From a virus (Duplodnaviria > Heunggongvirae > Uroviricota > Caudoviricetes), in IMG/VR virus record IMGVR_UViG_3300042472_000628, positions 101,455 through 165,454 of that record: DNA of 64,000 nt; one strand, written 5' to 3'. Numbering within the stretch: position 1 is the first letter of the stretch; every line of letters begins with the position of its first letter. The translations under genes and the position numbers were made by a program. This document shows positions 10,915-61,810 of the stretch, piece after piece. The notes below the pieces were generated by a model. That model searched no databases, had not been told where the DNA came from, and saw only the letters and a list, made by a program, of their open reading frames with translations.

Positions 10915-11607
10915 ATGAAAACACATATAATTTATCTAAAGGGCAATGAATTCTCAGAGACCATGGTAAAAGATACCATAAAGTCTTTGAACAAATTCGA
11001 TATCGACTATGAATTATTTGATGGAGTTGTAGGCAGAAAAGGCATTGAAGTTTTAAAATCTTATAATGCAAAACCCTCAGCATATGTTAATATGGAAGAT
11101 TGGACCGATGGTACTATCGGTTGTTTAGCAAGTCATTATTTATTATGGGACGAGTGCTCTAAACAAGATCAACCTTTTTTAATTCTTGAACAAGATGCTG
11201 TTTTAGTTAGAGATCCTAGAGAAATACTACACTTAATAGAAAATGCATGTCATTTAGATGCATATTTACCCTTTAATAATTCAGGTGCTGTTACAGAACA
11301 TGAACACTTTAAAGCTTATAATGATGCTATCAAACTTTATACTAGTGGAGTTAAAAAACACCCTATTAGTAAATTTTATGGAGATAAGTCTGTAACTGGA
11401 AGCACTTTTAGAGGCGCATATGGATATATAATAACACCCAAAGGTGCCCAAGAAATCTTAAATTTTATAAATAAAAAAGGTATATTTCCAGCAGATGCAT
11501 GTTTATGTGAAAATGCTACAGATATTCAAAGATCAAATAGTACATACGTTAGATTAAATCCATTTTTCGAAACATTGGACTTACAAAGAAAATTTTCATC
11601 AAGATAA
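10915..11607 (+). CDS. glycosyltransferase family 25 (LOS/LPS beta-glycosyltransferase-like)
   Basis: GTIGCLASHYLLWDE motif and overall layout typical of GT25 (Lic2B/LgtB-like). Confidence 0.55.
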   Translation: MKTHIIYLKGNEFSETMVKDTIKSLNKFDIDYELFDGVVGRKGIEVLKSYNAKPSAYVNMEDWTDGTIGCLASHYLLWDECSKQDQPFLILEQDAVLVRDPREILHLIENACHLDAYLPFNNSGAVTEHEHFKAYNDAIKLYTSGVKKHPISKFYGDKSVTGSTFRGAYGYIITPKGAQEILNFINKKGIFPADACLCENATDIQRSNSTYVRLNPFFETLDLQRKFSSR

Positions 11608-11734: not shown

Positions 11735-14365
11735 TTAACTAAAAGATATTGATATTGGATCACCATATACAAATGATGAAGCTGCTGTTACAGTTTGAGT
11801 TGCTGCAGCAGTGTTAATACTTATAAAACCTGGACCTGCATTAACATACGCCATGTTTGACATAAGAGTGTAAGTTGCTGTATTACCATTTTGTGTAACT
11901 GATATAGTTCCACCGTTATTTTGTAAAGCAGTGAATTGAGTTGTATAATCAGTACCTGCGCTGTCTTTTAAGCAAAAGTTAAGATAGTCAATTCCTGTAT
12001 TATTATTTGGATTAAATGTTGAAAGAGTTCCAGAACCTGAGTTATTATCTGTAAATATCGCTTGACCGTCTGATGTAGGAGGTCCAACTGTGAATGCTCC
12101 TTCAGCAGTATAGAAGTACCAAGAACCTGATCCAGTGTTTCCACCTCCACCGTTGTTTCCACCTTCATCTAAAACAAAAGGTCCTTTATAGTCTTTTGAA
12201 ATATAAACTCCATTTCCTCCTGCGCTCATGCTTAATACACTAATCATAGGAACATTACCTTCAATTGTATCAAATCCTCTTAAAATAGTAGAATTTATTG
12301 TTTCATAAACTAAAGGCATTGCTGTAAGAGTATTAACAACTAAACTTAGATCTTGCGTACTTCCAGGAATTTGATCCATTGAAATTCCGATTATATTGTA
12401 AACATTATATAAGTTACCTCCATTAGTTATTTCAATATTAGTGATTGAGCCACCAGAAACTGTAATTGTAAATTGTGCACCAGTACCTTCACTACCAGAA
12501 TAGTTAGCAGTTTGGTATACATTATAAACACCATCAGTATATGTAGATTCTCCTATGTTTATTGAAACTGTAGCTATAGAATTAAGTTTTTCTTTAAAAT
12601 TCACACCAGATAAACCAACAACATCAACTTTATTATTTTGAAACCAATGACCGATATTATTAGTACTAAAGTTATCAGCGATATGATTACTATAAAAATA
12701 TTCACCAATGTTATTACCAGTAAAGAAATTACCAATTACATTTCCTCTTGATTCACCATAACCAAATCCAAAGTCTGATGCAATAGTGTTATTGGTAAAA
12801 TTATGACCAATTGTATTGAATCTAAAATCATATCCAATTGTATTATTTTGAAAATTATTACCGATGGTGTTATTATCACCACCTTCTAATATATTAGCTA
12901 TAAAATAATTACCAATTACATTATCACCGAAATTGTTTGTGATTTTATTTTCTCTAAATGCATTTCCAATTCTATTGTTTTCAAACGTATCATGGCAAAT
13001 GTTATTACCGAAATCAAAATCAATAGTGTTAGCTATAAATGTATCGTCTATTATGTTTCTTTGAAAATCATCATTGATGATATTTTTCATGAACTCACCG
13101 TTTGACATAGTTACGAAATTATATTTAAAATTATTTCGTATAACATTATTACTAAAATCATAACCATCATTATCAGCTAAAGTATTATGTTCAAAGCCAT
13201 CACCAATTTGATTTCTAGCCATATCACAATCAATCCAGTTATTTGTAAAATAATTTCCAATGGTGTTTCTATCAAAATCATCAGTCATGATATTATTTTG
13301 GAAATAAAGACCTATTCTGTTACCGTCCATATCATCATCAAATGTATTATTTTGTACATTAGCACCAAAATAATTATCATTATATGTACCGTCTAAGAAA
13401 ACATTATTTGATAAAATAAAAGAATTATAGTCTCTATTATCACCTAAATAAGTATTATTACTATCGTTATCATTAAACGTATAAAATTGTTCAGAATTGA
13501 AACGCAAAGATGGTGCATTACATTTAAATGGACTTCTAAGACCTTTTGTCCAACCTTTAGAATATGTAGCGTTATATTCCCAACCATATGAAATACCAGC
13601 AACAGTCATTGTTGTATCATTTTCAATTCCAACAACTTCATAGAAGTTATGACAACCGATATTATTTGTGTTAAAAACAGCAAGATAATCACCAACATAG
13701 AAACTATTTGTAAAACTAGTATTAGTTCCGGTTACTGTTGCATGCATTATTGGTCCATCAGGTCCGATTAATTGTTCTTGTGTTTCAGGATTATACACGA
13801 AAAAAGGTTCTCCAACACTAACAGTACCTTCATAATAAGAATCTGCCATTAAAGCTTCATGTCTTATAAATTGTACATTTCTAAAATCATAATCAGCTCT
13901 ATTATTTCTTTCATCGATTCTTTCTGTAATTCTACCTTTAGCACCACTATTAGTAAACTCAGTTTGATTCCAAGTAACGTCATATTGAATTTTGTCTTTA
14001 GGATATTCTGGTGAATAAGTTGTTGATGAAATTCTATCTGCAGCTAAAGCCAAAACCATTAATGACTCAATATTACCAACTTTATATGTGTTTTCATTAC
14101 TGATAGCATTACCATTCCAGTCAAAATTAGGTTGATCATAGCATGTTTGGAAATCTGTTATCATATAGAAGTTACCCGGTACTAAACCAACAACTGATAT
14201 TAATCCTGTTAATTCAGCATAAGTTAGTTCTGTGTAGTTTACACCTGCAATTTCAGAATATGGTACATGAACTGTAGCACCATTTTTTTCAGCTAAAAAT
14301 AATGTAGTAGCTGTAACTTGATCAATTGGATTTAATTGACCTATTGTTTTTGGAGTTAATGACAT
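11735..14365 (-). CDS. tail fibre / receptor-binding protein with long run of N-x-(I/F)-G-x-N-F beta-helix-type repeats and Gly-rich C-terminal region
   Basis: 876-aa ORF; central region is about 25 degenerate repeats (NNIxxDxFxxNxIGNxF...); composition typical of phage fibres/spikes. Confidence 0.55.
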   Translation of the reverse strand: MSLTPKTIGQLNPIDQVTATTLFLAEKNGATVHVPYSEIAGVNYTELTYAELTGLISVVGLVPGNFYMITDFQTCYDQPNFDWNGNAISNENTYKVGNIESLMVLALAADRISSTTYSPEYPKDKIQYDVTWNQTEFTNSGAKGRITERIDERNNRADYDFRNVQFIRHEALMADSYYEGTVSVGEPFFVYNPETQEQLIGPDGPIMHATVTGTNTSFTNSFYVGDYLAVFNTNNIGCHNFYEVVGIENDTTMTVAGISYGWEYNATYSKGWTKGLRSPFKCNAPSLRFNSEQFYTFNDNDSNNTYLGDNRDYNSFILSNNVFLDGTYNDNYFGANVQNNTFDDDMDGNRIGLYFQNNIMTDDFDRNTIGNYFTNNWIDCDMARNQIGDGFEHNTLADNDGYDFSNNVIRNNFKYNFVTMSNGEFMKNIINDDFQRNIIDDTFIANTIDFDFGNNICHDTFENNRIGNAFRENKITNNFGDNVIGNYFIANILEGGDNNTIGNNFQNNTIGYDFRFNTIGHNFTNNTIASDFGFGYGESRGNVIGNFFTGNNIGEYFYSNHIADNFSTNNIGHWFQNNKVDVVGLSGVNFKEKLNSIATVSINIGESTYTDGVYNVYQTANYSGSEGTGAQFTITVSGGSITNIEITNGGNLYNVYNIIGISMDQIPGSTQDLSLVVNTLTAMPLVYETINSTILRGFDTIEGNVPMISVLSMSAGGNGVYISKDYKGPFVLDEGGNNGGGGNTGSGSWYFYTAEGAFTVGPPTSDGQAIFTDNNSGSGTLSTFNPNNNTGIDYLNFCLKDSAGTDYTTQFTALQNNGGTISVTQNGNTATYTLMSNMAYVNAGPGFISINTAAATQTVTAASSFVYGDPISISFS

Positions 14366-29245: not shown

Positions 29246-29248
29246 AAT

Positions 29249-32318: not shown

Positions 32319-32324
32319 TAACTT

Positions 32325-32394: not shown

Positions 32395-32403
32395 AATTAA
32401 TAT

Positions 32404-34719: not shown

Positions 34720-34720
34720 T

Positions 34721-34999: not shown

Positions 35000-35070
35000 C
35001 TTTTTAAAAAATAATCAGTCAAACATTTTTTTGTTTGGCTTTTTTTATGTATATTAGCCTTATAATTAAA
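34990..35070 (+). promoter_or_regulatory. conserved cassette 9 (TGTTCGTAACTTTTT; hairpin agtcaaaca-T7-tgtttggct; ATGTATATTAGCCTTATAATTAAAAG)
   Basis: Motif instance. Confidence 0.6.
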
Positions 35071-35081
35071 AGATAAACAAT

Positions 35082-35405
35082 ATGAAAAAATTTAAAGTAC
35101 TTAGTCAAGAAGATGCAATCAACGAGTCAAATGGCTCATCTCTTAAAGGTTACATTAGTGCAACTTATAGTCAATTAATTGAAGCACTTGGAGAACCTAC
35201 TCATAATACACCTTCGGGTGATGACAAAACTCAAGTAGAATGGGTTGTTGAATTTGAAGATAGTATTTTTACAATTTATGATTGGAAAACATATTCAAGA
35301 GAATATACTGAAACCAGATTGACACAATTTAATGTTGGTGGCAAAACTTATGCCGGGGATTTCATCGATCAAATTGAAACTATTTTAAAATCTAAAGCTT
35401 ATTAA
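35082..35405 (+). CDS. hypothetical protein
   Basis: ORF track. Confidence 0.4.
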   Translation: MKKFKVLSQEDAINESNGSSLKGYISATYSQLIEALGEPTHNTPSGDDKTQVEWVVEFEDSIFTIYDWKTYSREYTETRLTQFNVGGKTYAGDFIDQIETILKSKAY

Positions 35406-35406
35406 T

Positions 35407-35571
35407 ATGAACTACAAGAACTATTTTATTGAAGAAAATGAAAACTATTGGCCATCACACCCTGAATCTAAGTATGTGTTTAATAATACTGAAGATTGCG
35501 ATGAAACAATAGGATGTGGTAGTAGTATAGAGGATTGTATAGAACAAATCGAAGAAAGATTAGACCAATAA
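35407..35571 (+). CDS. small Cys-rich hypothetical protein (54 aa)
   Basis: Hand translation MNYKNYFIEENENYWPSHPESKYVFNNTEDCDETIGCGSSIEDCIEQIEERLDQ. Confidence 0.3.
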   Translation: MNYKNYFIEENENYWPSHPESKYVFNNTEDCDETIGCGSSIEDCIEQIEERLDQ

Positions 35572-35574
35572 CAT

Positions 35575-36282
35575 ATGAGAATAACATTAATTTCAGATAC
35601 TCACACAAAGCACGATGAGTTATCTTACGACCCTAAAGATCTCCCAGGTGGAGACTTATTAATCCACGCAGGAGACCTTATGAATTCTGGTAGAAATCCA
35701 ATGGATATTCACCAATTTTGTAAATGGTTTGAAGGATTAGAGCAATATAGCAATAAAGTTTTTATTGCAGGAAATCATGACAGAATCTTTGAAACTGACC
35801 CAGAAATGGCAAGTGAGATTTATACCTCTTATAAAAACATTGAATATCTTCAAGATAATCGATTAGATCTATGGGATCAAGATGACCAACAAACCGTTAT
35901 TTATGGTAGTCCATGGCAACCTGAATTCTATAGTTGGGCATTTAACTTACCAAAGGGTGGTCCTGGATTAATGTCAAAATGGGAAGCAATTCCTAAAGAT
36001 ACTGATATTCTTATCACACATGGACCTCCACAAGATCATTTAGATGTGAGTGGTCCTCCATATAATGAACCACATTTAGGATGTGCATTACTTAGAGAAA
36101 AGGTAGATGAACAACCACCTAAGATTCATGTATTTGGACACATTCACGGTGGATATGGTTACAAATTCCACAACGGTACTCACTTCTTTAACGCATCAAT
36201 CTTAAACGAAAGATATGAATATGTGAATAAGCCTGTAACGTTCGATTGGGATCCTGAAACTAATGAAATAACTTTTATATAA
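35575..36282 (+). CDS. calcineurin-like metallophosphoesterase
   Basis: ISDTHTKH, GDL, GNHD, GHIHGG motifs. Confidence 0.6.
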   Translation: MRITLISDTHTKHDELSYDPKDLPGGDLLIHAGDLMNSGRNPMDIHQFCKWFEGLEQYSNKVFIAGNHDRIFETDPEMASEIYTSYKNIEYLQDNRLDLWDQDDQQTVIYGSPWQPEFYSWAFNLPKGGPGLMSKWEAIPKDTDILITHGPPQDHLDVSGPPYNEPHLGCALLREKVDEQPPKIHVFGHIHGGYGYKFHNGTHFFNASILNERYEYVNKPVTFDWDPETNEITFI

Positions 36283-40703: not shown

Positions 40704-40777
40704 GGGGGTGTAGCTCAGTTGGCTAGAGCATCTGCCTTGCACGCAGAGGGTCGCAGGTTCGATTCCTGTCACCTCCA
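40704..40777 (+). tRNA. tRNA-Ala (TGC)
   Basis: Acceptor gggggtg/cacctcc with G3-U70; D arm tagctcagttggctagagca; anticodon stem tctgc/gcaga with loop cttgcac. Confidence 0.7.
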
Positions 40778-40781
40778 CTAA

Positions 40782-50489: not shown

Positions 50490-50696
50490 ATGTCAGAACA
50501 AACAACACAAGAAAAACCACAAGTTTCACCTTTCGAAGAAGTGAAAACTATGACCAATGTACAAGCTCTTAATATTTTAATTCAGGCAGCTAATGCAGCT
50601 CAAGGCGCAGGAGTATTAAGTGTACGAGATTCAGTATTTGTTGCAGCCGCAGCAGAATTATTAACAAAACCATTCAGTGATAAAAAAGCGAAATAA
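50490..50696 (+). CDS. hypothetical protein
   Basis: ORF track. Confidence 0.4.
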   Translation: MSEQTTQEKPQVSPFEEVKTMTNVQALNILIQAANAAQGAGVLSVRDSVFVAAAAELLTKPFSDKKAK

Positions 50697-51085
50697 TGAA
50701 AATCGAGGTATCAAACGGAGAAATTATTGACAAGTTAACTATTTTAGAAATCAAACTTAAAGAGATTTCTGATCCTGAAAAATTAGCAAATATTCAAAAA
50801 GAGTATGATTCACTTTCATCTGTCGTAGATCACATCTATAATGAAGTTGATGACTATCGTGAATTAACAGTATTACACGAAGATTTATTTAATGTAAATA
50901 AAACCCTTTGGAATATTGAAGATATGATTCGTGAATGTGAACGCAAAGAATCATTTGGCGAAGACTTCATTGAATTGGCAAGATCTGTGTATTACACAAA
51001 TGATGATAGATCTGATGTCAAGAAAAAAATCAATTTGTTAACAGGATCTTTATTCGTAGAAGAGAAATCCTATGAATCATACTAA
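50696..51085 (+). CDS. hypothetical protein
   Basis: ORF track. Confidence 0.4.
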   Translation: MKIEVSNGEIIDKLTILEIKLKEISDPEKLANIQKEYDSLSSVVDHIYNEVDDYRELTVLHEDLFNVNKTLWNIEDMIRECERKESFGEDFIELARSVYYTNDDRSDVKKKINLLTGSLFVEEKSYESY

Positions 51086-51088
51086 TAC

Positions 51089-54000
51089 ATGTCAAAACAA
51101 GTTGCGATATGTATAGATACGCCTGCATTAGGTGACACGATAGCAGCAATTCCTACACTTAGGAAGTTAGCTAAAGCGTGTGAGTCACAGCTTATAGTAT
51201 TTTCTAGTAAACCTTTCTTATTCGAGGGTCATCCACTAGTGTCGAAAGCACTAAAGTTGGATGACCCTCTTAGATATGACCCTAATATAAAGGTTTATCG
51301 TACGTTTATGCCAATTGTTGGTAAAGCATATGATTTAAGAGGTGAACAAGTAGAATTTAGATCGTCTAATATGGATATTAGACAATTTCATGCAGTTTCA
51401 TTAGGGTTTAGTTTAACTCAAGATGAAATGGAAATGGATTTGTATATTGAACGTGAAAGAAATCTTGGATTTGAAAACTATGTTATAATACACCCAACTT
51501 ATACTTGGGCAAGTAGAACATGGGATCAAGATAAGTGGCAAGAACTTGTTGATAGATTAAACGATAGAGGTATTCCAGTAGTTGCAGTTGGTCGAGATTC
51601 TCATGAAGTTGGTACATTCTCAGTAGACAAACCAGTAATGAATTTGAATATAAAACTCGGAGTTAACTTACTTAATGATCCAACAAATGATCCAGCTGAA
51701 TTAAGATGGATGATGAATCATAAAGCTAGAGCTATAGTTACTATGGATTCTGGTTTATTGCACATTGCAGGAACTACTGATGTAAATATTATTCAATTGG
51801 GTAGTTCAATAGATCCAAAATTAAGAGCACCTTATAGAAAGGGTTCACAAGATTATAAATACAAATATATTGGTGGAAGTTGCGATATTTTCTGTTCTAG
51901 TAATATGAAATACAATATTATTGAACATGGAACTATTCAAGCTATTCCTCCACAGTTGCATTGCTTAGAATATAAACCAACATTCGAGTGTCATCCTACA
52001 GTGGATAAAACATTCGATGCAGTTATAGATTTGTATAATGACTTATTAGTAGACCATGTCTATATGAAACCTAACACCAAAGAAATGACAAACAAAACTA
52101 AATTACTATTCCTAGCACCACATTTAAGTACAGGAGGCATGCCTCAATTTGTCTTAAAGAGAGTTGAAGCTATGTTAGATGTAAAAGACTTTGAAATCCA
52201 CTTAGTAGAGTATACTCAATATAGTGATATTTACAATGTACAACGAGATCAACTTATAGAAAAATTAGGTGCTAGATTTCATTCATTAGGATTTTTAAAT
52301 TCAATAGACATCACTGAGCGAGGTGAAAGATTAAAAGCAAAGATTTTAGAAATAAACCCAGATATTATTCATATTGATGAATGTCCAGAATCATTTGATG
52401 GATTTAATAAAATTGATCAAAGCGCAATGGAATGGCTTTACAATAAACAATGGAAGATTGTAGAAACATCTCACAATATTTGGTTTGATCCAAACAATAA
52501 GATCAATGATCCAGATATGTACATGATGTGTACTCCATATCATTTAGAAACATTTGGAAATAGAGATGGTTTAAAACCAGTTGTAGAATATCCTATATTA
52601 AATCAAAAACCTTCAGCATTTGATAAAGCAAAATCAAGAGCTAAATTAGGTTTAGCTATCGATAAGACTCACATATTAAATGTAGGTCTTTGGACACAAG
52701 GAAAGAATCAAGCAGAAGGTGTTGATATTGCTAGAATTGTAGAAGCTCAATTTCCTGGAAAGTATCACTTTCATTTCGTGGGTAATCAAGCAGAAAACTT
52801 CGAACAATATTGGGGACCAATTATGAAGAAGCTGCCAAGTAATGTTACTATATGGGGTGAGAGAAACGACGTTGATGTCTTTATGAGTGCATGTGACGCA
52901 TTTATGTTTAACTCAACATGGGAGTGTAGTCCACTCGCACTACGTGAAGCAATCGGTCATGGTCTAATCACATTCTCTAGAAACTTAGAGCAATATAAGG
53001 ACATGTTTACACCTTACATTGTCCCATTCACAGATGATCTCCATGGAAATGTTGACCAATTAATCAAAACACTCAAATCATCCGAGGCACAAGGAAAAAA
53101 TATCCCAGACGACGATCTAAAACGTTTCACTGTACAACATATCCAATGGTACCAACAATGTTTAACTACCCCACGAGGCCCTCAAAAGCCACCGACACAC
53201 AAACAACCTGAATGGACATTAGAGTATCAAGATGGTCCGAAATTAACGATCAAGTCAACTGGAAGTGGTCAATTACGGGCCGAGTTTTATGATAACCAAG
53301 ATCTAGTCTGGAACGCTACAGACCTGCAAGCTGGAAGTTGGTACAAGCCCGCAAGAAATTGGTGGACTCAGTGGACTGTTAAGGTTTACAGTAATGACCA
53401 ACTAGTTCATTCAGAACGTCTGAGCCTGGAAGGCCAGGAACTGACAGTGGAAATGGCGAGCTCATCACTTGGAGACACACTGAGCTTCATGGGACAGCTG
53501 CACACAGTGATAGACACACATAAGCTTAGCAAATTATATGTGAAGACACACAAACCCTGGCTGTTTGACAAAGCATGGTATAGCTCAAAGGGCATAGACA
53601 TCATTGACTGGTCAGTGCCTAACAAGGGTGCGCTAATTACACTCGGAGTCTTTTACACCATGGAAGAACCATGGAAACGTGCTGAACATAAATATGACTG
53701 GAGACAAATACCCCTGGGGAAAATCGCCTCAGATCGCTTAGGTACTGAGTACGTAGAACAAAGACCTCAACTAGCGCGCGAATTCTTGATCAAGTCTACT
53801 GCAAAAAAACGCTCCATTGTCATTGCTACCCAAAGTACCGCACAAGCCAAGTATTGGAATAATCCTACTGGATGGCAAGAAACCATTGACTGGTGTAATA
53901 GTAAAGAGATTAGTGTGTACCATGCTAGTAAAGAAGGTAGTCAATTAAAAGGGGTTAAACAATTACCAGAAGAGCTTGCATTAGTAGCAGGAGCTATCAA

Positions 54001-54292
54001 TGAAGCTGAACTGTTTATTGGAATCAGCTCTGGCCTTAGTTGGTTCGCTTGGGCACTTGGAGCAAAAGTAATTATTATTAGTGGCTTTACAGATCCTTAT
54101 GTAGAATTTGCAGATGCCATTTATATTAACAATCATCAAGTATGTCATGGTTGTTGGGGTTGGGATACATTTGACAAAGGTGATTGGAATTGGTGTCCTT
54201 TATGGAAAGGTACACACCGACAATTTGAATGTACTAAAACAATTGGATCGGACAGAGTTATAAATGTAATTAATAAAGAACTGTATGGATAA
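51089..54292 (+). CDS. 1067-aa multidomain glycosyltransferase (GT9 heptosyltransferase-like N-domain + GT4/GT1-like middle domain + second GT9-like C-domain)
   Basis: N-term VAICIDTPALGDTIAAIPTLRKL (GT9 signature); middle ...FNSTWECSPLALREAIGHGL (GT4 E-x7-E-like region); C-terminal IATQSTAQAKYWNNPTGW block GT9-like. Confidence 0.5.
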   Translation: MSKQVAICIDTPALGDTIAAIPTLRKLAKACESQLIVFSSKPFLFEGHPLVSKALKLDDPLRYDPNIKVYRTFMPIVGKAYDLRGEQVEFRSSNMDIRQFHAVSLGFSLTQDEMEMDLYIERERNLGFENYVIIHPTYTWASRTWDQDKWQELVDRLNDRGIPVVAVGRDSHEVGTFSVDKPVMNLNIKLGVNLLNDPTNDPAELRWMMNHKARAIVTMDSGLLHIAGTTDVNIIQLGSSIDPKLRAPYRKGSQDYKYKYIGGSCDIFCSSNMKYNIIEHGTIQAIPPQLHCLEYKPTFECHPTVDKTFDAVIDLYNDLLVDHVYMKPNTKEMTNKTKLLFLAPHLSTGGMPQFVLKRVEAMLDVKDFEIHLVEYTQYSDIYNVQRDQLIEKLGARFHSLGFLNSIDITERGERLKAKILEINPDIIHIDECPESFDGFNKIDQSAMEWLYNKQWKIVETSHNIWFDPNNKINDPDMYMMCTPYHLETFGNRDGLKPVVEYPILNQKPSAFDKAKSRAKLGLAIDKTHILNVGLWTQGKNQAEGVDIARIVEAQFPGKYHFHFVGNQAENFEQYWGPIMKKLPSNVTIWGERNDVDVFMSACDAFMFNSTWECSPLALREAIGHGLITFSRNLEQYKDMFTPYIVPFTDDLHGNVDQLIKTLKSSEAQGKNIPDDDLKRFTVQHIQWYQQCLTTPRGPQKPPTHKQPEWTLEYQDGPKLTIKSTGSGQLRAEFYDNQDLVWNATDLQAGSWYKPARNWWTQWTVKVYSNDQLVHSERLSLEGQELTVEMASSSLGDTLSFMGQLHTVIDTHKLSKLYVKTHKPWLFDKAWYSSKGIDIIDWSVPNKGALITLGVFYTMEEPWKRAEHKYDWRQIPLGKIASDRLGTEYVEQRPQLAREFLIKSTAKKRSIVIATQSTAQAKYWNNPTGWQETIDWCNSKEISVYHASKEGSQLKGVKQLPEELALVAGAINEAELFIGISSGLSWFAWALGAKVIIISGFTDPYVEFADAIYINNHQVCHGCWGWDTFDKGDWNWCPLWKGTHRQFECTKTIGSDRVINVINKELYG

Positions 54293-54992
54293 TTTTTGGA
54301 TAATAAATCGATTAGCAGATCAATATAAAACTAGTCTAGAAGCCAATGGAGGTCGACCTGAAAGAGCAAGACAAATTGATACTATAGTTAGCGCTATAAT
54401 TGGTAAAGTAAAAGCTATTGGTCCTATTAATATTATAGAAACTGGAGCTAGTCAATCATGGCAAGATGGTATGATGGGTACTTTTTTTGCTAATATAGCT
54501 TTAGTAACTGGTGGTAAAATGTGGGTCGTAGATATAGATCCTATTATAATAGCTAAATCTAAAACAGCATTTGCAGAATTAGGTTTGGAATTTGTAGAAT
54601 TTTTTACTGAAGACTCCGTCCAATTTTTAAAGAGGTTTGATGAGCATGTAGATATTGTTCATTTAGATTCATGGGATTTGGATTTACGTGATTCTTTACC
54701 TAGTGCATTACATGGTTGGCGAGAATTCGAAGCCATTGAAGCCAAATTAGGTGCAGGTGCTATAGTAATAGTCGATGATAATTATTTAGATGGTACATGG
54801 GTTAATATAAACGAGATACTAAATGGTCAGTTGACTGAAAAATTCGAAAGATTTGATGTAACAATGCCATGTGCTGGTAAAGGTGCTCATATATATTGGT
54901 GGGTTAAACAAGATGCAAATAAATGGTCTCTTTTAGGAGATCATTATCATGCAGGAAATAATATTAAAATTATATGTCAAAAAGAAGTATGA
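54285..54992 (+). CDS. class I SAM-dependent methyltransferase (TylF/MycF, Methyltransf_24-like)
   Basis: IIETGASQSW ... VVDIDP pattern; tentative. Confidence 0.4.
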   Translation: MDNFWIINRLADQYKTSLEANGGRPERARQIDTIVSAIIGKVKAIGPINIIETGASQSWQDGMMGTFFANIALVTGGKMWVVDIDPIIIAKSKTAFAELGLEFVEFFTEDSVQFLKRFDEHVDIVHLDSWDLDLRDSLPSALHGWREFEAIEAKLGAGAIVIVDDNYLDGTWVNINEILNGQLTEKFERFDVTMPCAGKGAHIYWWVKQDANKWSLLGDHYHAGNNIKIICQKEV

Positions 54993-55867
54993 AAGCTGTA
55001 GTTACAGGTGGAGCTGGTTTTATCGGTTCACATCTAGTTAAAGAACTATTAAATAATGGATGGTTTGTAACTGTACTTGATAATTTCAGTACTGGATCAA
55101 TTGACAATTTAGAGCCACATCCAAATCTAATTATTGAAGCCATAGATATTACTAATGGTAAATTGCCAACTTATAAATTTGATACTCTATTTCATTTAGC
55201 TGCACCTATTAGTGTACCTGAAAGTTTAGAAGAGCCAATGAAATATTGGACAGGTATATGTGTTGCAAGTAGAAGAGTCATGAGTTGGGCTTATGAAATG
55301 GGAGCTACTTCAATGGTAGCTGCATCCACTGCTGCAGTTTATGGTGATTCAGAACAAGTGCCTCTAAAAGAGAGTGATACACCAAGTCCAATGAGTCCTT
55401 ATGCCGAATTTAAATTGGAAATGGAACACATGATGATGAGTTATAATAAACCTCAATTTAAGTGTACAGCTCTAAGATTTTTTAATGTCTTTGGTGAAGG
55501 TCAAAGAGCTACTGGTGGATACCGAAGTGCAGTGCCTATTTTCTTACAACAATATGAATCTTATCAACCTATTACTGTAACTGGTGATGGTGCACAAACC
55601 AGAGATTGGATTTATGTTAAAGATGTAGTCAATGCTATTATAATGAGTAGTCAGGCCGAATTTAAGACCACAATGCCAATTTATAATGTTGGATCTGGCA
55701 CAGAAACTCAAGTTATTGAAGTAGCTGAAGCATTTGGTGGTGAAATCAAACATTTAGAAAAAAGAGAGGAACCTATGCGTTCTGTTGCAGATATTGCAAA
55801 AATAACTAAACAATTGGGTTGGAAACCTGAAACAAACTTATTATCTTGGATAAAATCAATTAAGTAA
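54974..55867 (+). CDS. NAD-dependent nucleotide-sugar epimerase/dehydratase (SDR family)
   Basis: VVTGGAGFIGSHLVKEL Rossmann motif; about 297 aa. Confidence 0.6.
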   Translation: MSKRSMKAVVTGGAGFIGSHLVKELLNNGWFVTVLDNFSTGSIDNLEPHPNLIIEAIDITNGKLPTYKFDTLFHLAAPISVPESLEEPMKYWTGICVASRRVMSWAYEMGATSMVAASTAAVYGDSEQVPLKESDTPSPMSPYAEFKLEMEHMMMSYNKPQFKCTALRFFNVFGEGQRATGGYRSAVPIFLQQYESYQPITVTGDGAQTRDWIYVKDVVNAIIMSSQAEFKTTMPIYNVGSGTETQVIEVAEAFGGEIKHLEKREEPMRSVADIAKITKQLGWKPETNLLSWIKSIK

Positions 55868-55876
55868 AACTAATAA

Positions 55877-56269
55877 ATGGAACATATAACAACACACCCT
55901 ATCAAAAAGTCAGATTTGGGTTTTCATGGAAATCTTTTTGGTGGAAAACTATTAGCATGGTTAGATGCTGCAGCTGCAGGATATGCAATGCAAGTGTGTG
56001 ATACACCAAGAATGGTTACAGTAATGATTGATAAGTGTGAGTTTAAAAAACCTGCAAAAGAAGGTCAACTATTAAAAATTTATGGTAAAATGCTAAATAT
56101 CGGTAGAACGAGTATTACGCTATATTTAGAAGCCAGAGCACATAACGTATATTCAGGCAGTCAATCAATTATATTATGTACAAATATCAAGTTTGTACGA
56201 ATAGATGAGAATGGTGATCCCATACCAATTAGTGAAAGAGTTAAAGAAAAATATAAACTCGATATATAA
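55877..56269 (+). CDS. hotdog-fold acyl-CoA thioesterase
   Basis: HGNLFGGKLLAWLDAAAAGYA block. Confidence 0.5.
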   Translation: MEHITTHPIKKSDLGFHGNLFGGKLLAWLDAAAAGYAMQVCDTPRMVTVMIDKCEFKKPAKEGQLLKIYGKMLNIGRTSITLYLEARAHNVYSGSQSIILCTNIKFVRIDENGDPIPISERVKEKYKLDI

Positions 56270-56304
56270 GTTATAAGTGTTTAAATTAAAAACATAAAAA
56301 CATC

Positions 56305-56595
56305 ATGAGCACTACAGAAAAGTTTCTAATGCTATTTTCAGACTTCGAGATGATCGTGGTTGAAAAAACGAATGAGGTAAAAATAGACAAGAGTAATACT
56401 CAACATTCGATTGGCACCAATCAAACAAAGAGTGAACTAAAGAAAGTACTTAAGCGATTGACTGAAGAATACAGCAGAGCTAAAAAGTCATTTAAACAAA
56501 ATAAATTAAGTCGTCAAGAGCTATTTGATTTCGAATGGAGATTATTTGAAATACAAGAAGAGATTAAAAGATTAGATGACGAAACTACAGCATAA
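56305..56595 (+). CDS. hypothetical protein
   Basis: ORF track. Confidence 0.4.
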   Translation: MSTTEKFLMLFSDFEMIVVEKTNEVKIDKSNTQHSIGTNQTKSELKKVLKRLTEEYSRAKKSFKQNKLSRQELFDFEWRLFEIQEEIKRLDDETTA

Positions 56596-57083
56596 TGAAA
56601 CACCTAAAAAAATATGATCAATTTATCAACGAGAAATATCTAGACACTAGATATTCAGCTGGTCTTGCGATTGTGTTTGATGGTAAAATTTTGTTAGGTC
56701 AATCTAGAGGTAGAAAAGAAGGAACAGGTTATGGTATATCTAAAGGTGGCATCGAAGAAGGTGAATCACATTTAGATGCTGCTATCAGAGAAACTTATGA
56801 AGAGTTCGGTATCAAAGTTCCTAAATCTTTAATAAGCAAAAATGAACATACATTTGTTTTAACTTCTAGAAAGTATAAGTATAATAAAGTTATTTATTAT
56901 TTTATAGTTGAAATAGATAACCTGTCTAAAATAGGACTTAAAGATCTAGTGGTACCTAAAGGACAATTACAGCGTGAAGAAATTGATAATGCCAAATTTA
57001 TGGACAAAATCGAAGCTTCACAAGTTGTAATGTTAAGTCAACAAGTGGTTTTACAAAATCTAAGTGCAATGGGACTAATATGA
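56595..57083 (+). CDS. Nudix hydrolase
   Basis: Nudix box GGIEEGESHLDAAIRETYEEFGI (G-x5-E-x7-R-E-x2-E-E-x-G). Confidence 0.6.
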   Translation: MKHLKKYDQFINEKYLDTRYSAGLAIVFDGKILLGQSRGRKEGTGYGISKGGIEEGESHLDAAIRETYEEFGIKVPKSLISKNEHTFVLTSRKYKYNKVIYYFIVEIDNLSKIGLKDLVVPKGQLQREEIDNAKFMDKIEASQVVMLSQQVVLQNLSAMGLI

Positions 57084-57403
57084 AAGAATTAATAGGACAA
57101 TACATATCAGAATGGGGTTGGGTGACAGCAGTAGCTATAATTTCATTTACATTCAAAGACATGATTGCTAATCTTGTTATTGGTATGCAGTTTTTATGGG
57201 GTAATGATTTTAATGTAGACGATATTGTTTATATTAAAGGCGCTAAGAAAGCTAGAATAGTTAGACAAAATATATATAAAACAACTTTTTATGTTTTTGG
57301 ACATGAAAGAAAATTCGTAGTACCTAATAATAGGCTATGGACTCTAGAAATAGAAAAAGAAATACCAAAAGATGAAACACCTGAAAACTTTCCAATTATT
57401 TGA
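57080..57403 (+). CDS. hypothetical membrane protein
   Basis: ORF track. Confidence 0.4.
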   Translation: MKELIGQYISEWGWVTAVAIISFTFKDMIANLVIGMQFLWGNDFNVDDIVYIKGAKKARIVRQNIYKTTFYVFGHERKFVVPNNRLWTLEIEKEIPKDETPENFPII

Positions 57404-57635
57404 GGATGCTCAAAAAGTAGCTGACCTAAATCTTAAAGTTAGAGAATTAGATTCAAAGAAAAACGACATTAAATCTAAAGCGGTTGAAACTGCAAAAGCA
57501 ATGAGAAATGAAGAGGATCCATTAAAATCTGAAATATTATCACTTAATGCTCAAAAATTATCTATGCAAGCAGAAATAGCAAAAATTGATATAAAAATTG
57601 CTGCTATAAAAATAAAACAAGAATCTAATAAATAA
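57372..57635 (+). CDS. hypothetical coiled-coil protein
   Basis: ORF track. Confidence 0.35.
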   Translation: MKHLKTFQLFEDAQKVADLNLKVRELDSKKNDIKSKAVETAKAMRNEEDPLKSEILSLNAQKLSMQAEIAKIDIKIAAIKIKQESNK

Positions 57636-57665
57636 ACATTATTAGATTTTTTAGTATAATTAAAG

Positions 57666-58265
57666 ATGAAACACCTTAAGAATTACACAGAATACCTGAA
57701 TGAGGTAAACAGAGCTGGAAAACCATATCATGGTTCAAAAATTCTTGTGTTTGATCTTGACGACACATTAGTTATTTCTTCAGCTAAGATTAAGGTTTGC
57801 AATAAGAAAACCGGAGAATGTTATTCATTAACACCAGAGGAATTTAATAGTTATGAAAAACATGCAGATCATGAATTAAACTTTGATGAATTTAAATCAT
57901 TAGAGATTATGAAAGCTGGTCAAATGATTGAACATTACTTAGACATATTCAAAGAAGCTTATAAATCACGTATCGCAGTTGGAATTGTTACAGCAAGAGA
58001 TGATAGAGAAATGATCTATAGATGGTTAAGAGAACATGTTGGATTTAGAATCGACAAAGATCTTATTTTTGCAGTAAATGATTCAGTACATAAATTTAAA
58101 GGTAGTATATCAGATCGTAAAAAACAAGCGTTTAGAGAATTGATCAATATGGGTTATAGCGACCTACAATTTTACGATGATGATGAAGCTAATTTAGTAT
58201 TAGTAAAATCATTAGAACAAGAACACGAAGGAATTCAAATTTCCACAATCAGAGCATATAAATAA
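57666..58265 (+). CDS. HAD-superfamily phosphatase (possible sugar-phosphate, KdsC-like, phosphatase)
   Basis: Motif I FDLDDTLV, GIVTARD, FYDDD. Confidence 0.5.
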   Translation: MKHLKNYTEYLNEVNRAGKPYHGSKILVFDLDDTLVISSAKIKVCNKKTGECYSLTPEEFNSYEKHADHELNFDEFKSLEIMKAGQMIEHYLDIFKEAYKSRIAVGIVTARDDREMIYRWLREHVGFRIDKDLIFAVNDSVHKFKGSISDRKKQAFRELINMGYSDLQFYDDDEANLVLVKSLEQEHEGIQISTIRAYK

Positions 58266-58271
58266 TTTAAT

Positions 58272-60092
58272 ATGAAAAAACAATTTAACGATATCAGAAA
58301 TGATTTTGCTATTGCTATGGCAAAAATGAATGCAAAAAATGCTATCAATGAGCTTGACTTTACAGATAAAGAAGAGATGGCTGATTATGAAGATGAACAT
58401 AAAATCGGAGATAATACAAAAGTTACAATAGATGGTGTTACATCTAAAAGAGGTGATGTCGAAACAGAAGATGATAAAAAATTATCTGGTTTAAATAAAA
58501 TTACCGATAATATTGAAAAAGCATTAAAAGATATAACAGATCCAGAACAAAAAGCAAATGCTGAAGAATTATTAAGCGGTATTAGAAAGATCCAAGATCC
58601 AAATGTATCAGCTGAAGAAAAGAAAGAATTGTTAGGTAAATATGTTGAATCTGGTTGGATTAAAAAAAATGCAGGAGGTACTAAATTATATGTAGACACT
58701 GCTTCAACTGGTCTTTATAGAAAATCATTAGGTGATAAAACTACGCCAAAGGGTCTTATTGATGTTGCTAATGATTACGGGATTGATAATATTGAAAAAG
58801 ATGGTAGTAAACGTATTGCTAAAAAAGCAATGACCGGAGCTAAAATCTTTGGTGATAAAAAAGCCAAAATGGAAGTTAAACAATTAGACAATGGTGTTTC
58901 TATTGACGGTGCTGACTATACAAGACATGATGTTCCCAGCGACGAAAGATTACTTGAAATCTATGGTAATGAAAAAGAAGCAAAACGTGCAAAAAAAGTA
59001 TTAGAGAAATATAATAAAATTATTGACCTAACTGCAAAAGCATTTAAAGACACTGATAATATTGAAACATTATCTGCATTTCCTGATACACCTCCTACCA
59101 CACCAGAAAATAGAAAAAAACTAAAAGATGGTACAGCAGATATTTTAGCAGATGGTTTTGCTAAACAATTTGCAGATGAAGAACCTACCAAAGAACAACA
59201 AGCCATAATTGATGATTTTAAAAATCTTAAAGATATTAAAGATCAGCAAGAATATGATGACAAATTAATGGAAATTACTGGAAGAATGATGAAGGATCCG
59301 TATATGTCAACTGGAGCAGCTGATGTAGTTGAAATGGTTTCATATATGAGAGAACTTAATAAAGGTAATTCAGTTTATATGCCAGCCGCTTCTAACTTTC
59401 CGTTAGGTGATATTGTTTCTATTTCACCAGAAAAAGTTGATTTTGAAAAAGATTCACCAGAAGAAATTCAAAGAAAATTACAATTAATTATGACTAGTGT
59501 TGAAACTAGATCTATTAAAAAAGATGCTGGTGGAGCATCAGCTTCTGGAGATAAAACAGAATTAACTGAATACAAAGAATACACAAGTAAAGACGGTAAG
59601 AAGATTAGTCCTGAAGAAATAAAAGGTGATTTAACTAAAATGTCTAACAAAACAGAGATGTATTCATCTATATTTGATGGAGATACGGCGAAAGCACATG
59701 AAGACATTAAAGCAATGTCTAAGAAATATGATTTTGATCTAGAAGATCCAAAATACAAAGCACGTAAAGAAAAATCAATTGCATCTGCAATAGCTTACGT
59801 GAAAAAGAAAAATCAAGATATCGATGAAGATAAATTGAGAGCACAATACGAAGCATATTACGATTTAGGTAACATATATGCAAATACGTATAATTCTACT
59901 GCTGATTCTCAAATGTTTACAAACGAAGTTTGGAAGTATGATAAAAAAGAAGGTAAAGCTAAAGTTAATAAAACAGATGGATTAGATACATTAAGTTTAT
60001 TGAAATTCGAATTCAATATTGGATTCGGTGCAACTGGAAGACCTTCAAATCCAGTACCTACCAGATTTCAAAATCAAGAAGGTGAAGAATAA
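58272..60092 (+). CDS. large K/E/D-rich hypothetical protein (606 aa), possibly virion-associated
   Basis: ORF track; composition. Confidence 0.4.
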   Translation: MKKQFNDIRNDFAIAMAKMNAKNAINELDFTDKEEMADYEDEHKIGDNTKVTIDGVTSKRGDVETEDDKKLSGLNKITDNIEKALKDITDPEQKANAEELLSGIRKIQDPNVSAEEKKELLGKYVESGWIKKNAGGTKLYVDTASTGLYRKSLGDKTTPKGLIDVANDYGIDNIEKDGSKRIAKKAMTGAKIFGDKKAKMEVKQLDNGVSIDGADYTRHDVPSDERLLEIYGNEKEAKRAKKVLEKYNKIIDLTAKAFKDTDNIETLSAFPDTPPTTPENRKKLKDGTADILADGFAKQFADEEPTKEQQAIIDDFKNLKDIKDQQEYDDKLMEITGRMMKDPYMSTGAADVVEMVSYMRELNKGNSVYMPAASNFPLGDIVSISPEKVDFEKDSPEEIQRKLQLIMTSVETRSIKKDAGGASASGDKTELTEYKEYTSKDGKKISPEEIKGDLTKMSNKTEMYSSIFDGDTAKAHEDIKAMSKKYDFDLEDPKYKARKEKSIASAIAYVKKKNQDIDEDKLRAQYEAYYDLGNIYANTYNSTADSQMFTNEVWKYDKKEGKAKVNKTDGLDTLSLLKFEFNIGFGATGRPSNPVPTRFQNQEGEE

Positions 60093-60259
60093 TGAATCCT
60101 CAAGAGTGGAAACACTACATAGACAAAGGTGAGGTTCCAATGCATTTTTTTAAATCAATGGTGGAATCTATTAAGAAAGGCGAAAGGCTAAATGGTCAAC
60201 ATTTAGCCGTTTACCAATCTCATGGCATGATTGTTGAAATGATGTTACGTAAAAAATAA
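60092..60259 (+). CDS. small hypothetical protein (55 aa)
   Basis: Hand translation MNPQEWKHYIDKGEVPMHFFKSMVESIKKGERLNGQHLAVYQSHGMIVEMMLRKK; start overlaps the upstream stop. Confidence 0.3.
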   Translation: MNPQEWKHYIDKGEVPMHFFKSMVESIKKGERLNGQHLAVYQSHGMIVEMMLRKK

Positions 60260-60290
60260 ACTATTTCCAAGATTTTCATATAACTCATAA

Positions 60291-61043
60291 ATGAAAATGG
60301 AAAATTACACATATATTCTAGGTCCTTGTAGCATTGAAAGCGAGGACAACTTCATAGAAGTAGCAAATGCACTATATCCTTTAATGCAAGGAAAAGATTG
60401 GTATCTTAAAGGTAGCTTTGATAAAGCCAATAGAACTTCAATTCACTCTAATCGAGGTCCAGGTTTGGACGAAGGTATTCAGATCATGCGAAATGTTAAA
60501 GATAAATTTCCAGGTCTTAAAATTGTTACAGATATTCATACTGCAGATCAAGCATTACCATTATCAGATGTAGTAGATGTGATTCAAATTCCAGCATTCT
60601 TGTGTAGACAAACAGATCTTCTTATAGAATGTGCAAAACACTTTGATATTATTAACGTTAAGAAAGGTCAGTGGTTATCTGCAGATGCAATGAAACATGC
60701 TGTTACCAAGATCAAAGAAGTAAATCCAACATGTCAAGTATGGATTACAGAACGTGGATCTCAATTTGGCTTCGATAGATTAATTGTAGATTTTAGAGGT
60801 GTTGATGTTATGAAACAATTTGCAGATAAAGTTATCTTTGATTGTACACACTCAACTCAAATGTCAGGTGATGGTATTACTGGTGGAAGCAGAAAACTTG
60901 CAAAACAATATTCTTTAGCTGCGCGTATTTTTGAATATGATGGAGTATTTATTGAAACACATCCAGATCCTGATAATGCCATCTCAGACGCAGCTAGTCA
61001 AGTAGAATTGGATTGGATGGTTGAAAATCTAAAAAACATCTAA
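60291..61043 (+). CDS. kdsA: 3-deoxy-8-phosphooctulonate (KDO-8-P) synthase
   Basis: ILGPCSIES, GSFDKANRTS, IPAFLCRQTDLL blocks characteristic of KdsA / DAHP-synthase I family. Confidence 0.6.
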   Translation: MKMENYTYILGPCSIESEDNFIEVANALYPLMQGKDWYLKGSFDKANRTSIHSNRGPGLDEGIQIMRNVKDKFPGLKIVTDIHTADQALPLSDVVDVIQIPAFLCRQTDLLIECAKHFDIINVKKGQWLSADAMKHAVTKIKEVNPTCQVWITERGSQFGFDRLIVDFRGVDVMKQFADKVIFDCTHSTQMSGDGITGGSRKLAKQYSLAARIFEYDGVFIETHPDPDNAISDAASQVELDWMVENLKNI

Positions 61044-61378: not shown

Positions 61379-61810
61379 ATGAGTACAACAATCATCGCAG
61401 TAGTGCTAGTATCTTTAGTAGTTATTATAACTATTTTTAAAGCAGTTGCAAAAAAAGAGAAAGAAGATTCTAAAAGAGGTTCAGTACTTGATCCTATTGT
61501 AGAACCTACAGTAAAAAAGCCTACTAAAATTAAAGCTGCTAAACCAGTAAAAGAAGTAGCACCAATTGCTAAAGAAGCAAAAGCTAAAAAACTTACACCT
61601 AAAAAACCAAAAACAGGTAAAAATGCTACTAGTGGTTCAGGATCTGGATCAGGATCGGGCACTGGAAGTGGATCAAATATAGGTGGAACAGGATATGCTT
61701 ATGGTACAGGTTCTGGCCGTTCAAGTGGTAAAGGTTCAGGTTCTGGAAGCGGAAGTGGTTCAGGTTCTGGAAGCGGAAGTGGTAAAGGTTCCGGTGCTGG
61801 TAAAAAATAA
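61379..61810 (+). CDS. membrane-anchored protein with basic linker and long Gly-Ser (GSGSGS) repeat tail
   Basis: N-terminal TM IIAVVLVSLVVIITIF; KKPTKIKAAKPVKE basic segment; (GSGS)n. Confidence 0.45.
   Translation: MSTTIIAVVLVSLVVIITIFKAVAKKEKEDSKRGSVLDPIVEPTVKKPTKIKAAKPVKEVAPIAKEAKAKKLTPKKPKTGKNATSGSGSGSGSGTGSGSNIGGTGYAYGTGSGRSSGKGSGSGSGSGSGSGSGSGKGSGAGKK

Follow-up and report, generated by a model that had tools for sequence, protein, structure and literature searches.

A phage-encoded triple glycosyltransferase with a TibC/Aah-like C-terminal module and its possible role in fibre glycosylation

What does a tailed phage build with a single polypeptide that combines three glycosyltransferase (GT) modules, and onto which acceptor? 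The question is raised by an open reading frame (ORF) of 1067 amino acids (aa) at positions 51089-54292 of a stretch of 64,000 nucleotides from the viral record IMGVR_UViG_3300042472_000628 in IMG/VR (positions 101,455 to 165,454 of that record), which was analysed as a whole and is referred to as the window in the following. A first inspection of the sequence, called the original prediction here, had described the ORF as a GT9-GT4-GT9 fusion at the head of a 10-kb gene block that would make or remodel a methylated oligosaccharide containing 3-deoxy-D-manno-octulosonate (KDO). The ORFs listed there all exist where they had been placed, co-oriented and on the plus strand. Judged by sequence and predicted structure, the C-terminal module of the fusion is homologous to TibC and Aah, two bacterial autotransporter heptosyltransferases (BAHTs), and is not a lipopolysaccharide (LPS) heptosyltransferase. 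To our knowledge, BAHTs have so far been described solely from a few pathogenic proteobacteria, in which they modify autotransporter adhesins and are associated with virulence.

With the thirds of the protein scanned separately, Pfam assigns aa 127-251 to GT9 (E 9e-12), aa 513-671 to GT1/GT4 (E 2e-8) and aa ~900-1000 to GT9 once more (E 6.5e-5). In an AlphaFold2 (AF2) model based on 34 homologs (mean pLDDT 78), three folded domains are joined by linkers of low confidence (aa 317-334 and ~694-707). The triple fusion is thus borne out by the Pfam matches to each third as well as by the model, and as three separate folded GT modules are present, a single GT with long linkers, which the original prediction had named as the finding that would speak against it, is ruled out. 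An assembly or frameshift artefact was likewise rejected, since at least four metagenomic contigs carry the identical protein with the same neighbours, and full-length proteins of this architecture, 49-94% identical, make up more than 30 clusters. The fusion protein lacks any transmembrane or membrane-association segment. Its parts are as follows:

51089-54292, plus strand: fusion glycosyltransferase GT9-GT4-GT9, 1067 aa
51089..52036, plus strand: module 1 (aa 1-316), GT9-type GT-B fold without beta-barrel (PF01075, E 9e-12)
52091..53167, plus strand: module 2 (aa 335-693), retaining GT4-type GT-B fold (PF00534, E 2e-8, and PF13692, above cutoff)
53210..53455, plus strand: module 3a (aa 708-789), beta-barrel at the N-terminus of the TibC-like unit
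53456..54292, plus strand: module 3b (aa 790-1067), BAHT-like GT9 catalytic core with catalytic D796 and iron-finger Cys4

TibC is an iron-containing protein O-heptosyltransferase that glycosylates the autotransporters TibA and AIDA-I (PMC4358343). It is the best sequence match of module 3 (PDB 4rap, E 1e-32, spanning TibC residues 12-385) and also the top structural match (Foldseek TM 0.78-0.80 over the whole chain including the barrel, ~395 columns). The strands at aa 708-789 are modelled with a pLDDT of ~90, and Pfam TibC_1st matches the equivalent barrel region in a homolog from the cultured Microcystis phage Mel-JY01. The defining residues of TibC, taken from the literature (PMC4358343), were mapped onto an alignment of 142 C-domains of the family. 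The catalytic base D110 corresponds to D796, situated in an LGD motif, while Thr226 and Lys230, which contact the beta-phosphate in TibC, and Trp305, which contacts heptose O4 (PMC4358343), correspond to T917, K921 and W985; all four are invariant. The same holds true for C1019, C1022, C1036 and C1048, the equivalents of TibC Cys339, 342, 358 and 370, which are predicted to form an iron finger. At the stereoselectivity position a Ser is present, as in Aah, in 136 of the 142 sequences.

With the BAHT equivalog model TIGR04414 (cutoff 200) the whole fusion protein reaches 208.8 bits, in two stretches of which the N-domain gives ~30 bits, the C-domain alone stays at 182 bits, and relatives from loci L041 and L026 attain 291-297 bits in a single stretch. 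Models of the LPS heptosyltransferases WaaC, WaaF and WaaQ score at best 24-51 bits with either GT9 module, 5-10-fold under their cutoffs of 135-467; for module 3, the comparison is 182 bits for the TibC-type model vs. 26 bits. On the basis of these sequence features, module 3b is predicted to start O-glycosyl (heptosyl) transfer onto Ser/Thr residues of a protein.

Modules 1 and 2 both retain their catalytic motifs. Module 1 is a paralog of the catalytic core of module 3 (hhalign against the C-domain profile, probability 96%), in which D16, T139, R143 and H225 as well as a separate Cys4 set (C265, C269, C292 and C301) are invariant among 34 sequences; against the LPS heptosyltransferase equivalogs it yields 24-32 bits (cutoffs 135-467). 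Module 2 carries the EX7E motif E612-E620, with E612 invariant and E or Q at position 620, together with an invariant K539, and its Foldseek matches are BshA, HepE, PimB' and WaaG (TM 0.62-0.75). A role in glycan elongation is predicted for both, in the case of module 2 from a UDP- or GDP-sugar.

More than 1300 homologs of the fusion were detected in metagenomes, and at least 545 stretches in IMG/VR, on contigs of up to 373 kb, carry the family. Among 185,579 species genomes, on the other hand, only seven hits were obtained, all of them on contigs of metagenome-assembled genomes (MAGs) that are mostly binned as Bacteroidota, and none in an isolate bacterial genome, so that the family appears to be restricted to phages and a recent capture from a host was rejected. 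A recently acquired host LPS fragment devoid of synteny in related phages, the second finding that would have spoken against the original prediction, is not what was observed: synteny exists in related phages, with core neighbours kept down to 45% identity. In longer forms of 1270-1630 aa, modules 1 and 2 are separated by an inserted GT8, GT34 or other segment, or an FkbM methyltransferase is appended, while forms of ~730 aa consist of the GT4 and TibC-like unit only. The cultured phage Mel-JY01 encodes a 1226-aa member (PP395634.1 4750-8430; 4433-8113 in locus L011) composed of GT4 and TibC-like modules (plus FkbM), which is annotated just as "methyltransferase FkbM" and has a collagen-like ORF and a "structural protein" as neighbours.

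The original prediction had regarded the architecture as undescribed. No paper was found in the published literature that ties TibC-like enzymes to phages or describes the fusion architecture, which agrees with this statement; the architecture is, however, not rare, as it abounds in metagenomic phages and has received the automatic name "autotransporter strand-loop-strand O-heptosyltransferase" at the Joint Genome Institute (JGI). A 2025 account of large aquatic Bacteroidota phages mentions several core GTs without assigned role and nothing more specific (PMC12619734).

The genes adjoining the fusion were compared in six near relatives (loci L003, L005-L008 and L012, 45-82% identity), the closest of which is L012 (82%). 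The following window genes are concerned:

50696..51085, plus strand: DUF6165 protein, 129 aa, predicted helical (PF19662, 60 bits), ending 4 bp before the fusion ORF
54285..54992, plus strand: putative class-I S-adenosylmethionine (SAM) methyltransferase (Spermine_synth 22.8 bits with a cutoff of 22.9; Methyltransf_24 E 0.037; PHROG 24975 5e-17)
54974..55867, plus strand: extended short-chain dehydrogenase/reductase (SDR), nucleotide-sugar epimerase (PF01370, 168 bits)

The methyltransferase and the SDR follow the fusion gene in all six near relatives, and five of them, L003 being the exception, have DUF6165 at a distance of a few kb at most, directly abutting the fusion gene only in L012 and in the window (coordinates in relatives: L005 17672-18064, L007 17930-18316, L012 9605-9997). 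DUF6165, fusion GT, methyltransferase and SDR epimerase form a conserved module. Across a broader set of 93 loci, which gave 66 groups after dereplication of the GTs at 90% identity, DUF6165 is present in 13 groups with a median gap to the GT of 41 bp and on the same strand in 82% of cases. No other conserved neighbour is linked as tightly to the fusion GT, and DUF6165 may assist GT9-type enzymes as an accessory factor; it shows weak similarity to DUF4254, and a sequence search of the PDB gave no significant relative.

The methyltransferase had been labelled TylF-like. Membership in the class-I methyltransferase superfamily can be retained, while the TylF assignment was rejected, because only weak generic matches were obtained and PF05711 was not among the Pfam hits at E<=0.1; a PDB sequence search revealed no significant relative either. 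The gene's position is occupied by FkbM in L012, L003 and L005, by Methyltransf_24 plus Methyltransf_25 in L007 and by a type of its own in the window, which shares no similarity in BLASTP with the first (Methyltransf_24) methyltransferase of L007. Since unrelated methyltransferase families occupy one slot and FkbM is even fused to the GT in L026 and P0093, methylation seems to be functionally coupled to the GT, presumably as O-methylation of the glycan. The SDR, for which the original label of epimerase/dehydratase holds, finds its best PDB matches in 6dnt, 6wjb, 4zrm and UXS and is nearest to UDP-hexose/N-acetylhexosamine (HexNAc) 4-epimerases; it may well supply the donor for an elongating module. 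In L003, the trio of GT, methyltransferase and SDR is flanked by the tail sheath gene and by gp13, a T4-like neck gene, and there the SDR resembles the ADP-heptose 6-epimerase HldD (177 bits vs. 44 for GalE).

How far, then, does the glycan locus extend beyond this module? The remainder of the block contains a hotdog thioesterase (4HBT match), a HAD-like protein and these genes:

56595-57083, plus strand: Nudix hydrolase
57080-57403: MscS-beta-like protein, 107 aa (PF00924, 26 bits, covering only the beta-domain of MscS channels), conserved in L012
58272-60092: ORF of 606 aa without assigned function
60291..61043, plus strand: KDO-8-phosphate synthase (KdsA; NF003543 287.5 bits, above the cutoff of 242; TIGR01362 271.8 bits, below the cutoff of 314)

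The labels thioesterase, Nudix hydrolase and KDO-8-phosphate synthase given earlier all proved appropriate, and the DUF6165 gene, the MscS-beta-like gene and the 606-aa ORF had been overlooked. For the HAD-like protein, the superfamily stands (weak HAD-IIIA match, E 0.008) and the KdsC-like label was dropped, as the matches are weak and unspecific; PHROG returns "polynucleotide kinase" (1.7e-12) and a PDB sequence search no significant match. KdsA is genuine and long resident in this marine lineage, with homologs in more than 120 clusters at >=79% identity on marine contigs of up to 255 kb, and it has been recorded earlier from large marine phages (PMC5332604, PMC12801897). A distance of 6 kb, occupied by genes without evident link to glycan synthesis, separates it from the fusion gene, and it is retained in L012 and absent from the neighbourhoods in L003 and L005-L008 as well as from 80 IMG/VR loci. 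The order of KdsA, Nudix, HAD-like, MscS-like and thioesterase genes is likewise kept only in L012, the genes being absent or elsewhere in the other near relatives. KdsA, Nudix hydrolase, HAD-like protein and thioesterase are thus lineage backbone genes, and as their order is kept in L012 and they do not lie near the GT in L003 and L005-L008, the thioesterase, Nudix, MscS-like and HAD-like genes were rejected as members of a glycan pathway. KdsA is probably a stand-alone auxiliary metabolic gene, and the Nudix hydrolase may fit the NAD-salvage genes of the phage at least as well as glycan synthesis. KdsB and KdsD (SIS), which the original prediction had suggested looking for, were not found among the annotated genes of the window or of ~7.8 kb downstream, nor were a KdsC-specific match or a WaaA/GT30 Kdo transferase. 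With no other gene of the Kdo pathway found and KdsA not linked to the GT in more distant relatives, a KDO-containing, methylated oligosaccharide as product of the whole 10-kb block is not supported.

Hints at the acceptor came from the 66 groups, in which all ORFs were clustered without prior labels. The commonest neighbour was a collagen-like gene (Pfam Collagen, 207 bits). A collagen-like ORF lies no more than 10 kb from the GT in 38 of the 66 groups, downstream and convergent in 31 of these 38, and the gap is at most 2 kb in 27 of 37 groups (P ~5e-12 vs. uniform placement) and at most 155 bp in ten. The repeat is of the type (Gly-Thr-Ser/Asn)n: among 12,217 triplets, the X position is occupied by Thr in 72% and by Ser in 20%, the Y position by Ser in 59% and by Asn in 31%, so that Thr/Ser and Ser/Thr/Asn each account for 92% of the X and Y positions, respectively. 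Each N-G-T in the repeat also reads as an N-glycosylation sequon. Uninterrupted runs comprise up to 861 consecutive triplets and ORFs exceed 3000 aa; if these proteins were triple-helical, fibres approaching one micrometre would be conceivable. Examples of such giant ORFs, which also occur in L058, L049, L045 and others, are listed together with a gene pair from a further relative:

L026, 12979-22224, minus strand: giant collagen-like ORF
L055, 13001-22252, minus strand: giant collagen-like ORF
L041, 12186-13688: split HldE, adenylyltransferase of 135 aa and PfkB kinase of 249 aa, with a small cupin ahead and no recognisable GmhA

In L041, the TibC-like GT is followed by the cupin and then by genes whose best matches are rfaE_dom_II (100 bits) and rfaE_dom_I (122 bits), and split HldE and cupin may represent a variant ADP-heptose pathway of phages. 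Prolyl 4-hydroxylase (P4H)-type oxygenases, Pro/Thr-linker proteins and further GTs recur near the collagen-associated GTs. In the reverse direction, among the matches listed, six of 120 loci chosen solely by a (Gly-Thr-x)8 DNA pattern contained a TibC-like domain. As bacterial BAHT genes adjoin the genes of their substrates (PMC4358343), the adjoining fibre genes of the phage relatives are, by analogy, likely to encode substrates, and the presence of collagen-like fibre genes and split HldE genes beside distant relatives points to glycosylation of phage fibres.

Two window proteins are speculative candidates for the acceptor, and a second GT is encoded next to one of them:

10915..11607, plus strand: GT25 glycosyltransferase (PF01755, 80 bits), adjoining the following gene
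11735..14365, minus strand: fibre/tailspike-like beta-solenoid protein, 876 aa, with ~29 nine-residue repeats at aa ~318-583 (period 9/18)
61379..61810, plus strand: (Gly-Ser)n protein, 143 aa, with N-terminal membrane anchor and Lys-rich spacer, just downstream of KdsA

The 876-aa protein is modelled by AF2 as a beta-solenoid (pLDDT 77-96); its top Foldseek matches are phage tailspikes, which in view of weak values (E 4.6e-4, low TM) is suggestive only, and its homologs (BLASTP 2e-30) are encoded within 4 kb of a TibC-like GT in 10-12 groups. The 143-aa protein (Kyte-Doolittle maximum 2.96 at residue 5, 24% Ser plus Thr, 90% G/S/T/N within a 30-aa window) is the only extremely Ser-rich real ORF of the window, and its (GS)n tracts are kept in L012 (21938-22453). 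GT25, correctly labelled in the original prediction, could by its sequence be a second glycosylation activity beside that of the fusion.

Taken together, we would put at about an even chance the proposal that the fusion is a soluble, cytoplasmic three-module enzyme for protein O-glycosylation, in which a BAHT-like initiator and two elongators act on a phage fibre protein. Module 3 would start the glycan with a heptose or related sugar, taken from a nucleotide-activated form, probably ADP-heptose, and transferred to Ser/Thr residues of a repetitive phage-encoded protein; GmhA and HldE were not found among the annotated window genes, and the donor would be supplied by the host. The retaining GT4 and the inverting N-terminal GT9 would lengthen the glycan to a short oligosaccharide, with the SDR providing an epimerised UDP-sugar and the methyltransferase capping a hydroxyl of the glycan. 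As the thumb is lost, the three-module fusion might then serve as an intramolecular assembly line in place of the dodecameric ring of TibC. The most likely acceptor is a virion fibre protein, in distant relatives the giant (Gly-Thr-Ser/Asn)n collagen-like fibre. A wider statement is offered more tentatively and falls somewhat short of an even chance: that large aquatic phages possess a system of their own for the heptosylation of proteins, in which a thumbless TibC-like initiator fused to GT4, GT9 and methyltransferase modules hyperglycosylates virion fibres and thereby provides them with a methylated, heptose-based coat. The fibres would in many lineages be the (Gly-Thr-Ser/Asn)n collagen-like proteins with lengths of several thousand residues.

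Several observations weigh against fibre glycosylation by a TibC-type mechanism. The C-domain of the window protein alone reaches 182 bits with TIGR04414 and thus stays under the 200-bit equivalog cutoff. Arg286 of TibC, which contacts adenine N1, confers ADP specificity and is essential (PMC4358343), has given way to Val, Thr or Ile in each of the 142 phage domains (the phmmer alignment shows a gap here), and in all phage domains examined a deletion of 11-14 residues removes the thumb (TibC Phe265-Val266), an essential beta-hairpin that mediates formation of the dodecameric ring in TibC (PMC4358343). Owing to these losses, donor and quaternary structure may differ from those of TibC. The SDR of the window is GalE/UXS-like (GalE TIGR01179 169.5 bits, heptose epimerase 108.9 bits, both under cutoffs). 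The associations with collagen-like and ADP-heptose genes stem from relatives that are merely 37-44% identical, while loci of the near clade (>=45% identity) are without a collagen-like gene within 10 kb; in the window itself no acceptor was found, there is no run of at least five G-X-Y triplets in the 64 kb, and no collagen-like gene was called in ~7.8 kb beyond its end. Finally, the near-clade neighbours GlmS, PAP2 and amidase, joined in this lineage by KdsA, also fit an envelope-glycan role.

Such a role is the core of the main rival explanation, which we judge unlikely: the fusion would mimic inner-core assembly by WaaC/WaaF, WaaG and WaaQ, KdsA would boost Kdo, and LPS or another envelope glycan would be remodelled during infection on Kdo-lipid A or another lipid-linked acceptor. 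GT9 and GT4 are indeed the classic families of LPS-core synthesis, the structures matched by module 2 include WaaG, and the genuine KdsA conserved in the lineage is accompanied in the window by GT25, a member of the "LPS biosynthesis protein" family. GlmS, an additional GT9 and a lipid phosphatase of the PAP2 type are encoded in near-clade neighbourhoods. Sets of LPS genes with KdsA and WaaG in large marine phages have moreover been interpreted in this way (PMC5332604, PMC12801897). Module 3 is nevertheless far nearer to TibC than to LPS heptosyltransferases, and it keeps a beta-barrel and a predicted iron finger that are not found in LPS enzymes; the annotated window genes do not include KdsB, KdsC, KdsD or WaaA, KdsA does not accompany the GT beyond the immediate lineage, distant members adjoin fibre genes rather than LPS genes, and a segment for membrane association is missing from the fusion. 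Of the three roles proposed originally (glycosylation of virion proteins, seroconversion of host LPS, decoy glycan), the first is accordingly favoured by the TibC-like module and by the fibre genes near relatives, with LPS seroconversion as its strongest competitor.

We consider it improbable that the enzyme glycosylates a surface or secreted protein of the host, such as an adhesin or a cargo of the type IX secretion system (T9SS), and thereby blocks superinfection or alters host behaviour. All characterised BAHTs act on surface adhesins of bacteria, which they modify in the cytoplasm, prior to export (PMC4358343), CHU_C (T9SS) proteins are encoded near the module in relatives, and the lack of a phage acceptor in the window is in line with this idea; the collagen-like neighbours in 38 of 66 groups are, however, encoded by the phages, the gene in L003 resides inside a structural module, and neither an autotransporter gene nearby nor a CHU_C homolog in the window is present. 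Glycosylation of phage DNA (a hypermodified base), of a small molecule or of a free glycan by a multi-GT enzyme strikes us as very improbable. Phage GT-B enzymes commonly glycosylate DNA, multi-sugar hypermodification of DNA is known (cited in PMC12619734), and nucleotide-metabolism genes are numerous in the window. Against this stand the specific homology to a protein-acting enzyme with its substrate-side modules kept, the absence of an adjacent hydroxymethylase or base-modification gene and the position of family members beside fibre genes.

As to the likely hosts, T9SS CHU_C sorting-domain proteins are encoded in relatives (L005 4082-5674, L007 1099-3168, L012 338-670), a CHU_C homolog being absent from the window. 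They suggest phage proteins exported via the T9SS of the host, and in combination with the MAG bins, most of which are assigned to the Bacteroidota, they give a weak hint of Bacteroidota hosts.

Fibre glycosylation of the kind proposed would resemble several known systems without coinciding with any of them. With the BAHTs (TibC of enterotoxigenic Escherichia coli (ETEC), Aah of diffusely adhering E. coli (DAEC); TIGR04414; PDB 4rap/4rb4) module 3 shares the whole protomer fold of TibC, the catalytic Asp, the Thr/Lys pair for the beta-phosphate, the Trp for heptose O4 and the Ser of the Aah type, and some phage relatives are flanked by genes for ADP-heptose synthesis. The phage form differs in its fusion to two more GT modules, in the deleted thumb, in the replacement of Arg286 and in the lack of an autotransporter partner, for which neither the window nor related loci contain a gene; in its place, collagen-like or other fibre proteins are the likely partners. 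The LPS enzymes WaaC, WaaF, WaaQ (GT9) and WaaG (GT4) belong to the same CAZy families and have GT-B folds but possess neither barrel nor iron finger and are unfused. ADP-heptose is the usual donor of GT9 enzymes.

According to Freeman et al. in 2023 (cited in PMC12619734), mycobacteriophage-encoded GTs reportedly O-glycosylate structural proteins of the phage itself, the analogy already drawn in the original prediction. The enzymes are said to be separate, single-domain GTs acting on the C-terminal tails of capsid and tail-tube subunits; single-domain organisation, the lack of a BAHT-like module and a different host phylum set this system apart. A closer parallel in organisation is offered by A064R of chlorovirus PBCV-1, in which two GTs and a methyltransferase build the glycan of the capsid protein (PMC9614988). 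It is likewise a virus-encoded, cytoplasmic, multi-domain assembly line, on which a glycan of a structural protein is built and methylated, and some members of the phage family similarly have a methyltransferase (FkbM) fused. The A064R domains, on the other hand, are of GT-A or novel fold, as opposed to GT-B here, so that homology is not expected; moreover, A064R elongates an N-glycan and does not initiate, and the host is a eukaryote.

BclA of Bacillus anthracis is a glycosylated collagen-like protein. Together with Mimivirus L230, which glucosylates hydroxylysine and is encoded along with viral collagens (PMC9614988), it exemplifies the combination of a collagen-like protein with dedicated glycosylation enzymes (and hydroxylases) that is mirrored by the (G-T-S/N)n genes and some P4H-type oxygenases near distant members of the phage family. 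The GT of Mimivirus is unrelated, and the association with collagen is seen in phage relatives and not in the window.

What is new here is the TibC-like, predicted protein-glycosylating fusion of phages, while BAHTs as such, and viruses that glycosylate structural proteins with enzymes of their own, were known already. Hundreds of divergent, modular BAHT-like versions in environmental phages widen the biology of the BAHT family and offer what would be natural monomeric, fused variants for glyco-engineering. They also correct a default annotation, as "LPS genes for host modification" is the usual reading of GT9, GT4 and KdsA in marine phages. Should the target be a virion fibre, the phage particles of oceans and lakes would commonly wear self-made glycan coats, and such coats, if real, would bear on adsorption, aggregation, grazing and stability well beyond the cases of mycobacteriophages and giant viruses. 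As the cultured phage Mel-JY01 carries a family member beside a collagen-like gene, the hypothesis is directly testable.

The phage from which the window derives is a large tailed phage of low GC content (~31%); its relatives include contigs of ~240 kb, such as contig_24016 of ENA ERZ10646654. A megablast comparison of the block with 50,697 deposited phages gave zero matches, so that it has no annotated close relative among them. The window also encodes an ATP-dependent ligase, NAMPT and an endolysin; the ligase is just ~30% identical to those of Bacillus phages (tblastn) and of no use for classification. The GT32-like DXD enzyme at 20203-20847 named in the original prediction was recovered with 46.6 bits. 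A cluster for NAD and nucleotide salvage extends over 26201-36282. Further features are:

4175-4789: sigma-70/extracytoplasmic function (ECF)-type sigma factor, regions 2 and 4
5053-11686: 25 of the 26 tRNA genes of the window, in a 6.6-kb array
26201-27133: phosphoribosyl pyrophosphate (PRPP)-synthase-like gene
29439-29951: NADAR
31025-31870: Thg1-like tRNA-His guanylyltransferase, encoded near tRNA genes
31860-32318: YqeY-like gene, encoded near tRNA genes
32404-33984: NAMPT
34243-34719: nucleoside deoxyribosyltransferase-like gene
40704-40778: lone tRNA-Ala

Sigma factors comparable to the one encoded here have been noted in predicted Flavobacteriaceae phages and in "moraphages".

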